Under the pieces are notes generated by a model. It had not been told where the DNA came from. It was given only the letters and a program-made list of their open reading frames with translations, and did not search any database. A DNA stretch of 40,364 nt, from NCBI GenBank assembly GCA_027347685.1, contig DAIEQM010000033.1, positions 1 through 40,364 on the forward strand, read 5' to 3'. The DNA comes from Candidatus Woesebacteria bacterium. Its GTDB lineage: Bacteria; Patescibacteriota; Microgenomatia; UBA8517. A program made the translations under genes and the position numbers. Below are positions 6,517 through 34,637 of this stretch, piece by piece (position 1 is the stretch's first letter; each line of letters starts with the position of its first letter).

Positions 6517-7398
6517 ATGGCATCTAAAGCAAAAAATCAACAAGGTGTAACTGTCGCAAAAACCGACGATGGAACTGTTCAAATGACATTTATAATTCCG
6601 TGGGCTGAGGTTGAAAAGGCTGAGAAAGAGGCAACAACCAAGTTATCGCAAACCGTAACTGTTCCCGGATTCAGAGCAGGAAAGGCACCCGTTGAAACTG
6701 CAGCTTCACACATTCCTCGCGAAACATTAGTGCAAGAAACAGTAACTGCTCTCTTGCCTTCAAAAATTTCACAAGCATATAAAGATCATGATATTACCCC
6801 TATCATGTATCCAAAACTCGAACTTTTGCACGCACACGATGGAGAAGATTGGGAAATTCGAGCAACAACCGCACAATTCCCCGAAATTAAAATGGGCGAT
6901 TACAAAGAAAAAATTAAAGGCGCAATTGCTTCAAACGGTATTTGGACTCCAGAAAAAGGTAAACCTGAAGAACAAAAAGAATTAAGTCCTGAAGAAAAAG
7001 AGAACATTGCACTCCGTACTATTCTTGAAACCGTTGAAGTAAAGCTCCCAAACATTTTAGTTGAAGAGGAAGCCGATCACCGAGTGGCCAATTTACTTGC
7101 ACGACTTGAGAAACTGGGACTCAGTTTAGAAAGCTATTTGTCATCTCAAAACAAAGATGTGCAAACGATTCGAGCTGAATATGCACAGGCCGCGAGTGAA
7201 TCACTCAAATTAGAACTGGTTCTTGGAAAAGTAGCGGAAGAAGAAAAGATCGTGGTTGACGAAAAAGAGGTGGATGCATTTGCAAAAGTTACTGAAGCAG
7301 ACCCTCGCCGAGCGGGTCAAGCCGTTACCCCAGAGGAGAGAAACACCATTCGTACGCTGCTTCTTAAGCGCAAAGCTATCGACAAACTCGTTTCCTAA
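6517..7398 (+). CDS. tig: trigger factor, short form without the PPIase domain
   Basis: PGFRAGKAP matches the GFRxGxxP ribosome-binding signature. The N-domain is followed after a roughly 35-aa linker by a C-domain-like LPNILVEEEADHRVANLL. It is 293 aa, against roughly 430 in typical bacteria. Confidence 0.85.
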   Translation: MASKAKNQQGVTVAKTDDGTVQMTFIIPWAEVEKAEKEATTKLSQTVTVPGFRAGKAPVETAASHIPRETLVQETVTALLPSKISQAYKDHDITPIMYPKLELLHAHDGEDWEIRATTAQFPEIKMGDYKEKIKGAIASNGIWTPEKGKPEEQKELSPEEKENIALRTILETVEVKLPNILVEEEADHRVANLLARLEKLGLSLESYLSSQNKDVQTIRAEYAQAASESLKLELVLGKVAEEEKIVVDEKEVDAFAKVTEADPRRAGQAVTPEERNTIRTLLLKRKAIDKLVS

Positions 7399-8625: not shown

Positions 8626-8637
8626 TTTCTCTGAATT

Positions 8638-8672
8638 GGGGTTGAGTCAATTCTCAACCCCTCTTTTTTTTG
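8638..8672 (+). terminator. intrinsic terminator
   Basis: GGGGTTGAG, 6-nt loop, CTCAACCCC (9 bp), then TCTTTTTTTT. Confidence 0.7.
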
Positions 8673-28018: not shown

Positions 28019-29041
28019 CTAATCTTCTCTCAAAGCAAGCCCTACAGCCACTGCGTAAATAGGAGCAAAACTTGCAAGGCTTCGTGCACTTTCAGCGTCT
28101 ACAGTCAGGTCGGGTCGAGAGAATGGATTTCCAACTTGCACTTCCATATTAAGCAGTCTGGTAAGCTCAGCAGCGAGACCAGGAAGCCCGGAAGTTCCAC
28201 CAGATAAAATAAGAGATCGAGGAATATCGTTATGAGTTTCCATTTGGAAATAGCTCATCGACTTTTTGATTTCATCTACAATAACGGTAAGTACAGGGCG
28301 AATCGATCGTCCAACTTTTCCTTCGAGTTGGGTATCATTGAGTCCATAAGTGGCCTTGTATTCTTCTGACTGAATAGGAGTTACTCCAAGACCAAGACTT
28401 ACTGCACGAGAAAAAGCTTCCCCCGCAGTTGGTACCGATCGTGAGAAAAAGAGCTGTTCGTTTTTAACAATAGCAATATTTGTTGTTCGTGCGCCAAAAT
28501 CAGCAAGAATTACTGTTTTGTCAGGAGAACCCCATGTTCGTGAAAGTGCCAAGAGTTCCGTTTCTATAGCGACTACTTCAAGTCCAGCACTATTCACCAC
28601 ATTCATATATTTCTCAATCAAAAGTTTTGGAACGGCTATAACTTGAACCAACACTTGAGGTGGGTTCCCAACTTCTTGACGCTCCAAAATTTTATGACGG
28701 ACTATTGCGTCTTTAACCGGGATTGGAATATATTCTTCAGCTTCCCATTTAACTGCCGACTCAATTTCTTCATTGGTAAGAAGCGGAAACTTTACGGTTC
28801 GCATAAATATGAGCGATTCTGGAATTGATATCGTAACTTTCTTTGAAGAAATACGTGCGTCAGTAAAGAGCTTTTTAATAATTTGTGCAAAAGCATCCAC
28901 TGCCTTTTGATCTGCAAGTTTTTCAATTTGCGTTGATTGAAAATTAACAGCCCCAGCTGCTTTCAGCGAAAAACCAGATCCAACTTTTTCAAGTTCAACT
29001 ACTTTTAATGTTTTTGATCCAATGTCGAGTCCAACACTCAT
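28019..29041 (-). CDS. pilM: type IV pilus assembly protein PilM (actin-like ATPase fold)
   Basis: MSVGLDIGSKTLKVVEL...ILADFGARTTNIAIV...LILSGGTSGLPGL. ATG 29041 is preferred over track TTG 29065. Confidence 0.85.
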   Translation of the reverse strand: MSVGLDIGSKTLKVVELEKVGSGFSLKAAGAVNFQSTQIEKLADQKAVDAFAQIIKKLFTDARISSKKVTISIPESLIFMRTVKFPLLTNEEIESAVKWEAEEYIPIPVKDAIVRHKILERQEVGNPPQVLVQVIAVPKLLIEKYMNVVNSAGLEVVAIETELLALSRTWGSPDKTVILADFGARTTNIAIVKNEQLFFSRSVPTAGEAFSRAVSLGLGVTPIQSEEYKATYGLNDTQLEGKVGRSIRPVLTVIVDEIKKSMSYFQMETHNDIPRSLILSGGTSGLPGLAAELTRLLNMEVQVGNPFSRPDLTVDAESARSLASFAPIYAVAVGLALRED

Positions 29042-29074
29042 AGGCAGGTAATTAATAATAAACAAAACCGAGTC

Positions 29075-29204
29075 GCTTTACTATCCCGAATAGCAAACGT
29101 GCTTTACTATCCCAAATAGCAAACTTGCTTTACTATCCCGAATAGCAGATTTACTTTACTTTCGTAGAAAGCAAGTTTACTTGACTATCCCAGGTGGAGA
29201 ATAG
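29075..29204 (-). repeat. five tandem 26-bp units (three near-identical, two degenerate), each a stem-loop in the sense RNA
   Basis: Units start at 29075, 29101, 29127, 29153 and 29179. The plus-strand consensus is gctttactatcccgaatagcaaacgt. The last unit overlaps the final codons of the PilX-like gene. Confidence 0.9.
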
Positions 29205-30106
29205 AGCGACGATTGAAACATACTTGGGATTTCAGGATACAGTGAATACACTTGTACTTTGCGTGTAGAAGTTCCAGACGTTCCCAGAGAGTCTACTTGA
29301 CGACCCTGATCTGGTAAATCTGAGGGGAGGTTCGTGACACCAAAAAGAGTGGGGGTTGTATTGTACAAAAGGAGAGCAGTAAGAGACTTTAAGCGTTTTC
29401 CATTTATTGATCCATTTGGAATTGCGAGATCGGTAAGCAGGTTTACGGTAACTTTGTTAGCAAGTGGAGTACCGTCGATGGTACAGGAGCCAGAACCTGT
29501 ATTGGTACTTATTCCGTTCGTGATAAAGCGATTTTGAGATGCGCGAGAACCGTTCGAATCGTAGGCAATGTATGCATATTTTCGAACACCTCCACCAGCC
29601 GGGTCTTCATACAAAAGTGCAAGGGCAATTGCTGGCTGTGTTCCACTGCCGGTTTTTCCCCAACAGACATCAATTGTTTGTCCTTGAAAACATTTATTAC
29701 CTCCGGTGCATGTAAGGCTGTTGTCGGTATCATGTGATGAAAGCCACACCGTAGCGCTGTCTCCAGCTGAAAGTTCTACCGGATATAAATATGAGCGAGG
29801 GTTTTGAGGAAATGCAGTCAAACTTGCAGTGTATGTAGAGCCAGACGAACCAACAGGCACCGGAGTAGGTGAGGGAACAAGGGGAAGGGATTCAATTGAA
29901 TTATTGAGGGTATTTTCAACGCCTGCTTCAGCAGCAGAAAAAGCTCGGAGAGATTCTTCACCTTTTGTACTCGTTGACACATCGGTAATTGAACGGGAGA
30001 CAACGGAAAGAGCAATAGTGAGGACTACTCCCACAGAGAGAAGAACCATAAGCAAAGCCTGACCATTCTGGCTGAATAGTGCTTGTCCTGATGCGTTTTT
30101 CTTCAT
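29177..30106 (-). CDS. PilX-like large minor pilin or tip-associated protein
   Basis: GQALLMVLLSVGVVLTIALSVVSRS...SLRAFSAAEAGVE resembles the PilX N-terminal domain. There is no canonical G/FxxxE site. The start is ATG 30106, or alternatively GTG 30124. Confidence 0.6.
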   Translation of the reverse strand: MKKNASGQALFSQNGQALLMVLLSVGVVLTIALSVVSRSITDVSTSTKGEESLRAFSAAEAGVENTLNNSIESLPLVPSPTPVPVGSSGSTYTASLTAFPQNPRSYLYPVELSAGDSATVWLSSHDTDNSLTCTGGNKCFQGQTIDVCWGKTGSGTQPAIALALLYEDPAGGGVRKYAYIAYDSNGSRASQNRFITNGISTNTGSGSCTIDGTPLANKVTVNLLTDLAIPNGSINGKRLKSLTALLLYNTTPTLFGVTNLPSDLPDQGRQVDSLGTSGTSTRKVQVYSLYPEIPSMFQSSLYSPPGIVK

Positions 30107-30113
30107 ATATTTT

Positions 30114-30635
30114 TCAGTATACACGTAATATTACTCTTCTCGAAATAGTCGCAAAACTGGTGTCGGTCGCGGCGGCATTTGCTGCGGTTCCTGCAAAGAC
30201 AAAATCAATAATCGGTGGATTGTATACGCCATTTGATGTGCAAGTGAAAGTGCAGGTAGTGAGATTTATATCAGAACTTGTTATGCGCGCACCAGATGTG
30301 CCATCACTTAAGTACTGATTGGCCCCACCACTACAGGTGTAGCTTCCAGTCGTTCCTGTTTGGGTTGTGTAGCTGATACTTGCATGGCTCGCGCCATCAC
30401 ATGCACTCGTAATCAATTTGGCGTTTCGTACGTTTCGTTCAACCAGTGAAGCAGCAAAGTCTAAATTGTCACGAACTCTACTTGAGGCATCAACTTTTCT
30501 CGTACCTCTAAATGACTGTAGTGTACTTTGCGTTACAATAAAAGCTAAAAGCGCGAACAAAAACATAACCACAAGCATCTCAATGATGGAAAAACCGTGT
30601 AAATTCTTACCCTTAGTGGTATGTGTATTTTTCAT
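30114..30635 (-). CDS. minor pilin with prepilin-type N-terminal cleavage/methylation domain
   Basis: MKNTHTTKGKNLHG/FSIIEMLVVMFLFALLAF. Confidence 0.75.
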   Translation of the reverse strand: MKNTHTTKGKNLHGFSIIEMLVVMFLFALLAFIVTQSTLQSFRGTRKVDASSRVRDNLDFAASLVERNVRNAKLITSACDGASHASISYTTQTGTTGSYTCSGGANQYLSDGTSGARITSSDINLTTCTFTCTSNGVYNPPIIDFVFAGTAANAAATDTSFATISRRVILRVY

Positions 30636-33983: not shown

Positions 33984-33998
33984 ACAATCACTATATCA
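33984..33998 (-). promoter_or_regulatory. extended -10 TGATATAGT 6 nt before the pilD ATG
   Basis: The minus strand reads TGATATAGTgattgtATG. No SD. Confidence 0.45.
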
Positions 33999-34002
33999 AC
34001 AC

Positions 34003-34041
34003 AACAAAACACACACCAGACTGAAGTTGCCCTGGTGTGTG
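34003..34041 (-). terminator. intrinsic terminator of the major pilin gene
   Basis: CACACACCAG, 12-nt loop, CTGGTGTGTG (10 bp perfect), then TTTTGTTG on the minus strand. Confidence 0.7.
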
Positions 34042-34049
34042 AATTTGTG

Positions 34050-34637
34050 TTAGTTAACCCACGTACCTCCGGAAAAAGCAGCGACGGGAGCGGAAGCATT
34101 ACACCAAAGACCTCCACGACCTGCGGCTGTTGCATAGACCCAATAGGCTGTTTGACCGGCTGCACACTTAGCTGTATTACGCGTAGCCTCTGCTTGCGTA
34201 AAGACAACCATGTTAGCTGCAGTGCCGTCATAACACCAACCGTTTTCGCTGACAGATGTTCCAGGACATGCTGGAGCTGCTGCGAGAGATGTATAGCCAA
34301 TTGCGGCTGGCACTGCCTTAAGTTCACCAGTTCCCACCAAACAAGTAGTGATCCATGTAGTACTCGTGTTTTGTGGAACACCAGCTACAACTCCACATGT
34401 TCCAGCTGCGGCGTCAGGATTATACGATCCACCGTTTGCTGTTGCATGGGCTTCCATAGCATGACCGAGCTGGGCTACAGTTGAGGATCGTCCTGAATCA
34501 CGAGCTGCAGCAAGTTGCTGCACAGGATTCAATGCAAGAAGTACGACCACTGCAAGTGTACCTAAGATGGCAATAACGATCAAAAGTTCAATGAGGGTAA
34601 AGCCTCGTACGTTTAGTTTCAAAAATTTCTTATTCAC
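34050..34637 (-). CDS. pilA: type IV pilin, candidate major pilin
   Basis: MNKKFLKLNVRG/FTLIELLIVIAILGTLAVVVLLAL. It has its own near-consensus promoter, a perfect SD and a terminator. The body is Ala/Gly/Thr-rich and visibly more GC-rich than its neighbours. GTG start. Confidence 0.8.
   Translation of the reverse strand: MNKKFLKLNVRGFTLIELLIVIAILGTLAVVVLLALNPVQQLAAARDSGRSSTVAQLGHAMEAHATANGGSYNPDAAAGTCGVVAGVPQNTSTTWITTCLVGTGELKAVPAAIGYTSLAAAPACPGTSVSENGWCYDGTAANMVVFTQAEATRNTAKCAAGQTAYWVYATAAGRGGLWCNASAPVAAFSGGTWVN

Follow-up and report, generated by a model that had tools for sequence, protein, structure and literature searches.

A locus-specific array of tandem hairpin repeats between a PilX-like minor-pilin gene and pilM in a Candidatus Woesebacteria genome: a candidate intercistronic cis-element apparently derived from coding sequence

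INTRODUCTION

Repetitive extragenic palindromic (REP) sequences and bacterial interspersed mosaic elements (BIMEs) are dispersed outside genes in tens to hundreds of copies. Type IV pili hold a central place in the episymbiotic life of Patescibacteria, and to our knowledge almost nothing is known of how they are regulated in the reduced genomes of this group. In Escherichia coli, protective RNA structures are documented where one operon segment gives way to the next; they often lie within the ends of coding regions, and conservation at wobble positions is raised (PMC5927463). Here we describe an array of tandem 26-nucleotide (nt) repeats between a PilX-like minor-pilin gene and pilM in a 40,364-nt stretch of DNA from a Candidatus Woesebacteria bacterium (GenBank assembly GCA_027347685.1, contig DAIEQM010000033.1), the whole of which is called the window below. 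By its sequence, the array appears to be a locus-specific hairpin repeat and an intercistronic cis-element.

Its anatomy, its origin, its conservation, its strand-specific folding potential and its restriction to a single locus are established below. From these we infer that the array is transcribed, that it acts as RNA and that it affects decay, processing or expression.

RESULTS

Anatomy of the array

The array comprises four full 26-nt units on the minus strand, placed in the 135-nt gap between the PilX-like gene and pilM. The junction is made up as follows, in minus-strand order.

29177 to 30124, minus strand: PilX-like minor-pilin gene, an open reading frame (ORF) of 315 amino acids, the final pilin-type gene ahead of pilM, with the C terminus ...YSPPGIVK followed by TAA
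29177 to 29206, minus strand: PilX-like coding terminus, CTCTATTCTCCACCTGGGATAGTCAAGTAA, a partial "fifth unit" and apparent source of the repeat, with 7 nt more than a unit
29176 to 29151, minus strand: unit u4, ACTTGCTTTCTACGAAAGTAAAGTAA, adjoining the stop codon, degenerate, with an 8- to 9-bp hairpin of its own (covariance-model match, 32.3 bits)
29150 to 29125, minus strand: unit u3, ATCTGCTATTCGGGATAGTAAAGCAA
29124 to 29099, minus strand: unit u2, GTTTGCTATTTGGGATAGTAAAGCAC
29098 to 29073, minus strand: unit u1, GTTTGCTATTCGGGATAGTAAAGCGA, nearest pilM and, by alignment with loci L014 and L015, the ortholog of the single unit in relatives at 85% identity
29072 to 29042, minus strand: conserved nonrepeat tail, CTCGGTTTTGTTTATTATTAATTACCTGCCT, 31 nt, AU-rich, without a Shine-Dalgarno sequence, ending at the pilM ATG
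29041 to 28019, minus strand: pilM (Pfam PilM_2, E = 8e-40), its start taken as the ATG at 29041 (MSVGLDIGSK...)

Tandem Repeats Finder returned a single array, at 29076-29191, with a period of 26, 4.5 copies, 80% matches and a score of 132. No other repeat in the window comes close to it, and its end at 29191 lies within the PilX-like coding terminus. Units u1 to u3 share 22 to 23 of 26 bases with one another, and u4 shares 16 to 17 of 26 with them. The coding end, CTATTC-TCCACCT-GGGATAGTcAAGtAA (in longer form, CTATTC-TCCACCT-GGGATAGTCAAGTAA), fits the unit in its 3' half only, or over its full length once 7 nt are removed. A previous sequence-only reading of this DNA had described five 26-bp units filling the gap. 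The three near-identical units and the degenerate u4 are as it described them, but its fifth unit is merely a half unit carrying 7 extra nt, and the gap is not filled, since the nonrepeat tail (29072-29042) remains before the pilM ATG.

When searched with up to three mismatches, a 23-mer matched only the three unit sites in 40 kb (0 matches in 100 shuffles), and the 13-nt palindromic core was found only at the array within the window. In u1 to u3 UUUGCUAU can pair with AUAGUAAA with one G-U pair, and in u4 the stem is UUGCUUUC/GAAAGUAA; the 8-bp stems with a single G-U pair are thus as previously described, that of u4 included. Translation through the array is excluded, as every unit contains TAG-TAA and the 26-nt period rotates the reading frame.

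Origin of the unit

Gene order around the PilX-like gene and pilM is kept in all relatives, and their junctions compare with that of the window as follows.

L018 and L021 (PilX-like identity, 57 to 58%): PilX-like stop overlaps the pilM start (ATGA)
L022 (more distant; PilM identity, 78%): PilX-like stop overlaps the pilM start (ATGA)
23 more distant metagenome loci (lower PilX-like identity): 12 with ATGA overlap, 5 with a gap of at most 3 nt, 4 with a gap of 14 to 32 nt
L016 (PilX-like identity, 68%): 6-nt gap to pilM
L008 and L010 (PilX-like identity, 74% and 71%): 30- to 37-nt gap, no unit, coding ends ...CC(A/T)GGGATAGTAAAGTAG
L014 and L015 (PilX-like identity, 85%): 56- to 58-nt gap, one noncoding unit after the stop, then an AU-rich tail as in the window
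Window (PilX-like identity, 100%): 135-nt gap, four units and tail

On this distribution, the ATGA overlap of the PilX-like stop and the pilM start appears to be the ancestral state. The 3' half of the unit corresponds to the ancestral PilX-like terminus GGGATAGTAAAG. Because the coding ends of L008 and L010 (GGGATAGTAAAGTAG) match the 3' half of the unit exactly, and because the L014 unit still has a stop codon after AAG (GGGATAGTAAAGTAA), the unit appears to be a duplicated copy of the ancestral gene terminus. The derivation from the PilX-like terminus that had been proposed from the window by itself is upheld by these unit-less relatives. The in-gene copy seems since to have drifted at synonymous sites.

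Three side observations concern the same junction in other lineages. In the overlap lineages (L018:10900-10915, L021:2156-2171 and L022:2490-2504), the PPG(V/I) codons read CCAGGAG or CCAGGAA and lie 7 to 9 nt before the pilM ATG, and the conserved PilX-like tail there would double as the pilM ribosome-binding site. An independent, unrelated insert of 103 nt stands at the PilX-like/pilM junction of L025, which belongs to the 23 more distant loci (positions 2398-2500; JGI Ga0209518_1001508; PilM identity, 54%). It has a multibranch predicted fold of -32.2 kcal/mol (z = -2.3) with a closing stem of 12 to 13 bp (GUCAUUCUGGAG.../...CUCCAGGAUGAC), an AAGGGGG Shine-Dalgarno sequence downstream and no match in Rfam. 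Finally, two contigs of the relative at 68% identity, one from JGI and one from Logan, end at the same base 6 nt into pilM (L016:1570-1575 and L017:957-962), which may point to differences among strains of that lineage or to a repeat a little farther downstream.

Purifying selection on the unit and tail

Third positions of identical codons are identical between the window and L014 or L015 at a rate of 0.46 to 0.49 in the PilX-like gene and pilM overall, and synonymous sites appear close to saturation. The 56-nt segment formed by unit and tail is identical at 45, 50 and 47 of 56 positions in the three pairwise comparisons of the window, L014 and L015 (binomial p = 1e-6 to 2e-10 against a background of 0.49). 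Because unit and tail are so much more alike than the synonymous third positions of the genes that flank them, we regard the unit as a constrained cis-element under purifying selection rather than junk. The invariant blocks are CTATT-GGGATAGTAAAG, TTTTGTTTATTATTAA and CTGCCT; between core and tail runs an 8-nt linker that is fixed in length and variable in sequence.

In a sliding analysis, the PilX-like side stayed at background (0.40 to 0.60) up to the stop codon. Third-position identity in pilM was 0.87 to 0.93 in codons 1 to 15 and 0.73 in codons 16 to 30, and it reached background by about codons 50 to 80. The conservation island begins directly after the PilX-like stop and extends into pilM codons 1 to 30.

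The loop sequence YGGG and the A that follows it do not vary across the five unit copies, drawn from three lineages, that carry them. These loops had been likened to the GGA-in-loop sites of Csr/Rsm-type regulators, a likeness that fails on inspection: the loop is U(C/U)GGG, the next A is the first base of the stem, the base two before GGA is C or U and not A, ANGGA does not occur, and no site overlaps the pilM start. One could still picture the array as a multisite platform for an RNA-binding regulator, Csr/Rsm-like or new, that reads the GGGA loop and controls pilMNO translation or mRNA fate. Such a platform would make sense of three near-identical tandem hairpins and of an invariance beyond the needs of a purely structural hairpin. 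The lack of ANGGA and the pairing of the A of "GGA" count against it, as do the absence of GGA from the pilM start region (itself without a Shine-Dalgarno sequence), the absence of the motif from u4 and its restriction to the array locus, and we consider this explanation very improbable. A more specific and speculative version is that the YGGG(A) loop and core form the site of a novel, sequence-specific RNA- or single-strand-binding regulator of Patescibacteria that sets the ratio of minor pilin to PilMNO. The four copies of the unit would then offer a platform for cooperative binding that evolved from coding sequence, the hairpin having been "exported" from the gene end. We regard this as a long shot; if it were true, the regulator would tune the minor pilins against the PilMNO platform.

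Predicted RNA structure

The 104-nt array is predicted to fold at -35.6 kcal/mol in the sense orientation versus -18.4 kcal/mol in the antisense. Permuted-column tandem controls averaged -21.1 kcal/mol (standard deviation, 5.3), with 3 of 300 as low as the sense array, and the antisense value was unremarkable among them. Over a 176-nt region the z scores were -3.69 (sense) and -2.48 (antisense), and hairpins of single units ranged from -3.9 to -6.0 kcal/mol in sense versus -1.0 to -2.8 kcal/mol in antisense. The claim that the fold is favored in the sense transcript therefore held for the array and its units alike. The asymmetry stems from the G-U pairs; repetition of the unit amplifies a single signal and does not supply several independent ones.

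The minimum-energy fold, at -37.2 kcal/mol, is not the series of iterated stem-loops that had been described. Although each unit has its stem, four local stem-loops reach only -18.6 kcal/mol, and the preferred structure consists of two long hairpins of two units each. Helix u2/u1 is 19 bp long, contains five G-U pairs and is interrupted by a single mismatch. Inter-unit helices of 19 to 20 bp need several copies and are impossible for a single unit. Among the six units known (u1 to u4 and those of L014 and L015), the changes at paired positions are a G-U to A-U change in L015 and an A-U to U-A double change in u4 (pair 8-16).

An alignment fold prompted consideration of a riboswitch-like alternative, in which the 3' arm of the unit would have two possible partners, its own 5' arm and the U-rich tail. 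It was rejected because the alternative helix is weak (-4.7 kcal/mol, no better than shuffles in two of three lineages) and because the predicted accessibility of the pilM start region is unchanged. As a separate observation, both relatives at 85% identity have a predicted 8-bp long-range helix (L014:850-857 with 943-950; L015:1006-1013 with 1101-1108) that pairs PilX-like codons CAGCGCUC with GAGUGUUG at the pilM start and encloses the whole junction; the overall z scores of these folds are not significant. The window lacks this helix, and GUCGCU pairs instead with AGCGAC after u1.

These comparisons bear on whether the copy number matters. It is possible, if somewhat doubtful, that only the single ancestral unit with its tail is functional and constrained and that the three extra copies are tolerated products of slippage or tandem duplication, a fixed minisatellite without an added role. 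Tandem duplication is a common mutational outcome for short hairpin-prone sequences, the two closest relatives have one unit each, the predicted accessibility of the pilM start is unaffected by unit number, and u4 is missing one third of the core, as a decaying copy would be. However, all five sites that vary among u1 to u3 lie outside the 18-nt core defined by the orthologs (the probability that 5 sites would all land in those 8 of the 26 positions is about 8.5e-4), which suggests that the extra copies share the constraint. In addition, u4 has lost its sequence while its stem is kept and even extended, the 135-nt gap is an outlier beside the 0 to 58 nt of the relatives, and the array is identical in four other assemblies.

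Hairpin and loss of coupling

We folded the coding end, taken as the last 36 nt of the PilX-like gene, against 200 shuffles. In lineages with the ATGA overlap the terminus is nearly unstructured (0 to -1 kcal/mol). In uncoupled lineages without units it forms a predicted hairpin, of -9.2 kcal/mol in L016 (0 of 200 shuffles as low), -10.6 kcal/mol in L010 (1 of 200) and -7.7 kcal/mol in L008 (16 of 200). Coding ends in the unit-bearing clade are unremarkable (z = -0.3 to +0.4), and the hairpin is found in the noncoding unit instead: the L015 unit pairs perfectly over 10 bp (-6.0 kcal/mol, a value reached by 0 of 200 shuffles), and in the window u4 folds at -6.0 kcal/mol (2 of 200). A hairpin thus stands at or after the gene end in five of six uncoupled lineages, with L014 as the exception. 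On these predictions, the hairpin appears to emerge together with the uncoupling of the PilX-like gene and pilM.

Distribution of the array and element classes excluded

Five further contigs, drawn from ENA, NCBI (GCA_021824385.1) and Logan, encode exactly this PilX-like protein. Of these, four run across the array and match the window at every base; the fifth, Logan contig L004, ends inside u4. No copy-number variation was seen among the four array-spanning assemblies, which are consensus sequences, and the slippage-prone copy-number switch once suggested finds no support in these four independent, identical arrays.

A covariance model built from u1 to u4 and the units of L014 and L015 was searched in 229 kb comprising the window and the relatives' loci. 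It recovered only those six units, with one weak extra match at a relative's coding terminus. A 21-mer scan of one genome per species, over 185,579 species, gave two single matches, both in Flavobacterium metagenome-assembled genomes (MAGs); the one that was read (L007) lies in unrelated, coding-looking sequence, and we take the two matches to be chance. The pattern of unit plus tail had zero matches in a metagenome collection that evidently lacks even the JGI contig L014, and a metagenome protein scan with PilM returned only relatives of at most 78% identity, none with units. The clade is sparsely sampled, the top cluster in a PilM protein search having 4 members. Within the sequence examined, the array thus appears to be a single-locus element and not a member of a REP-like family.

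Each unit does share with REP sequences the form of an imperfect palindrome of about 20 to 40 nt (8- to 9-bp stem, 3- to 5-nt loop). A REP/BIME-type repeat was nevertheless rejected, as no dispersed copies exist in the 40-kb window at up to three mismatches or in the 229 kb by covariance model; the generic REP-like element that the sequence-only reading had set against its own proposal is not what was found. A dispersed repeat related to REP or to miniature inverted-repeat transposable elements (MITEs), or else a phase-variation switch prone to slippage, would accord with the palindromic and extragenic character of the units and with the break of contig L004 within the array, as assemblers do at repeats. 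Both are highly improbable in view of the searches above and of the constant copy number and sequence in the four spanning assemblies; in addition, no reading frame includes the array, and a change in copy number alters no promoter spacing.

A minisatellite, or variable-number tandem repeat (VNTR), is matched in the head-to-tail arrangement of units of at least 10 bp. Variability is without support, given the same copy number in four assemblies; between species the number is 1 versus 4. The array is not one of clustered regularly interspaced short palindromic repeats (CRISPR), as had rightly been noted: its units abut head-to-tail with a period of 26 and no spacers. Rfam had no match to the array at gathering or permissive thresholds; with E values up to 10 allowed, only a chance-level CRISPR-DR9 match appeared, outside the units (12.6 bits versus a 45-bit gathering score, E = 8.8). 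An intrinsic terminator was rejected as well. The unit stems hold one or two G-C pairs and the U-rich tract begins 9 to 10 nt past the last stem, unlike the canonical terminators of the same window (for example, 33984-34049 and 8626-8670), which join a GC-rich stem to a U run.

The AU-rich tail and the pilM start

The tail appears to be the pilM start region, serving as translation initiation region, internal promoter or both. Its 16-nt block TTTTGTTTATTATTAA and the CTGCCT before the ATG are invariant in the window, L014 and L015. TATTAT, a -10-like sequence (5 of 6 matches), sits in the tail 13 nt upstream of the pilM ATG, and neither GGA nor a Shine-Dalgarno-like sequence occurs in the 40 nt upstream of that ATG. 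Elsewhere in the window, Shine-Dalgarno sequences are absent from most genes, and several genes have a strong, often TG-extended -10 box with a weak -35; these boxes end 6 to 8 nt before the ATG (for example, upstream of the genes at 6517, 10074, 10823, 15664, 21328 and 33983). The scarcity of Shine-Dalgarno sequences and the closeness of the -10 boxes to the ATG suggest that leaderless or near-leaderless mRNAs are widespread in the source genome.

A DNA-level element is accordingly one alternative to consider. The tail would be an internal -10-type promoter of pilMNO, and the palindromic units (CTAT-N5-ATAG, at 26-bp spacing) would be operators of a dimeric regulator or an upstream promoter region. 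The conservation island is contiguous with the 5' end of pilM, the position of TATTAT can be compared with that of a pilB promoter candidate (TATAAT at 14 nt), promoters of this genome seem to be -10 dominated with a weak -35, the linker between core and tail has a fixed length of 8 nt and a variable sequence, and loop bases and core are conserved even in L014, which lacks a hairpin. A consensus scan, however, found no promoter or terminator in array or tail, the best -35 match being 3 of 6. Over the 40 kb the putative operator has no second copy, and the regions ahead of the pilus operon and of the major pilin gene are no exception. Both half-sites of u4 have changed symmetrically, so that pairing is kept and the bases that a protein would read are altered, and the strong folding asymmetry between sense and antisense would be meaningless for duplex DNA. 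We consider the DNA-level explanation unlikely.

Two further ideas about this region were set aside. An in-frame TTG at 29065, 24 nt upstream of the pilM ATG (window 29042-29065; L015:1069-1098), leads ORF finders and, in L015, one gene caller to lengthen PilM by MFIIN/KYLP. The PilM N terminus is conserved across all relatives. In the putative extension, the two variable bases fall on third codon positions and the other third positions are overconserved. Because all relatives begin MSVGLDIGSK and because of that overconservation, the extension is probably not real. The units were also considered as a relocated Shine-Dalgarno sequence, which was rejected as a function: GGGA lies more than 40 nt from the ATG in the unit-bearing clade, and the genome is mostly without Shine-Dalgarno sequences. 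Relocation is kept as an idea about the origin of the unit.

The pilus gene cluster

The minus strand of the 40-kb window carries a type IV pilus cluster, identified by Pfam and through the identical locus L001. Its members include pilB/pilT-like ATPases, pilC and a prepilin peptidase (Pfam assignments via L001), several genes with an N-terminal methylation motif, the PilX-like gene, pilM and two genes of pilN/pilO size. The PilX-like protein of the window has no Pfam match; its homologs match PF14341 or carry the JGI name "Tfp pilus assembly protein PilX." The names given to homologs assign the organism to Patescibacteria/Microgenomates (Woesebacteria-like). Within the cluster, a canonical GC-rich hairpin with a U run (CACACACCAGGG...CUGGUGUGUGUUUUG) lies at 33984-34049 on the minus strand, 3' of a pilin-type gene with the N-methylation motif (34050-34457) and 5' of the prepilin peptidase gene (identified via L001). 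It is followed by a -10 box, TATAGT, 6 nt ahead of the next ATG. Because of this internal terminator-like hairpin and -10 box, the cluster is probably not one uniform transcript.

DISCUSSION

We tentatively favor, at a little short of an even chance, the model in which the array acts in cis within the mRNA, as a boundary element where the minor-pilin segment meets the pilMNO segment. The PilX-like gene would first have lost its ancestral ATGA overlap with pilM. The last 30 nt or so of the gene, stop codon included, would then have been duplicated to give a 26-nt cis-element, and a lineage-specific tandem amplification confined to this locus would have produced four units. The functional module, at the nucleotide level, would consist of unit, AU-rich tail and first pilM codons. 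In this model the stem-loop or stem-loops lie on the 3' side of the minor-pilin mRNA segment, where they may protect it or define a processing site, and the unstructured AU-rich region may be the place of cleavage and of ribosome entry for pilMNO. The stem-loop module would replace translational coupling, so that the two segments could be expressed at different levels.

Several observations weigh against this model. The conserved island adjoins the 5' end of pilM and not the 3' end of the PilX-like gene, and it fits a promoter or translation initiation element equally well. Single-unit hairpins are weak, at -4 to -6 kcal/mol. Taken whole, the L014 and L015 junctions show no more structure than shuffles (z = -0.6 and -0.7), and the predicted accessibility of the pilM start region is the same with one, two, three or four units. 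In L014 the 18-nt core is kept and the 5' arm is eroded, so that no hairpin is predicted (-2.8 kcal/mol, z = +0.5); because this core is retained without a hairpin and the YGGG loop is conserved, primary sequence, and not pairing alone, seems to be what is kept. Units are found in three lineages only, which gives low statistical power. The change in u4 that had looked compensatory is real for one pair, but no other double change occurs in the six units. With a score equaled by 94 of 500 shuffles, covariation is not significant. Cotranscription across the junction and action at the RNA level are assumptions of the model.

The relatives nevertheless allow the locus to be arranged as a traceable series, from ATGA coupling, through a hairpin in the last codons, to a hairpin duplicated out as a noncoding unit and then amplified fourfold. 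It would represent a small, clean case of coding sequence giving rise to a cis-regulatory element, one on which purifying selection can be measured. If the boundary-element model is correct, the locus shows how an operon can be divided into segments that are tuned separately, with no gene added. Its practical impact is limited: only three lineages, all of one uncultivated clade, are known to have the element.

Among known systems, several resemble the array in part. REP/BIME, enterobacterial repetitive intergenic consensus (ERIC) and Correia elements are likewise short imperfect palindromes that are extragenic within operons, and BIMEs also cluster palindromic units in tandem. Unlike REP/BIME sequences, the array units occur at one locus, run head-to-tail in one orientation where those of BIMEs alternate, and have an origin that appears traceable to the adjacent coding sequence. 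With minisatellites and VNTRs the array shares its head-to-tail arrangement, its 26-bp period, a degenerate edge copy and a copy number of 1 versus 4 between related species; unlike a neutral VNTR, it is without within-species polymorphism in assemblies, and its unit core appears to be under purifying selection between species. Like Csr/Rsm sites, the units precede a gene start and repeat, several times in tandem, a G-rich loop carried by a short AU-rich stem. They differ in their motif (YGGG with a paired A, not ANGGA), in having no site at the ribosome-binding region and in their unique locus.

The intercistronic protective stem-loops, such as the malE-malF REP hairpins, the puf decay terminator and the 3' protective structures mapped across E. 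coli operons (PMC5927463), likewise lie on the sense strand between two cistrons. As with the protective structures of E. coli, the structure in near relatives is predicted to lie within the upstream coding end, and conservation exceeds the synonymous background. In contrast to these stem-loops, the predicted stems described here are AU-rich and individually weak (-4 to -6 kcal/mol); the array is tandem, confined to a single locus and apparently made from the last codons of the upstream gene itself, and conservation reaches into the start of the downstream gene. By analogy, the closest known counterparts of the array would be intercistronic protective stem-loops in function, and minisatellites and BIME-like palindromic clusters in form.

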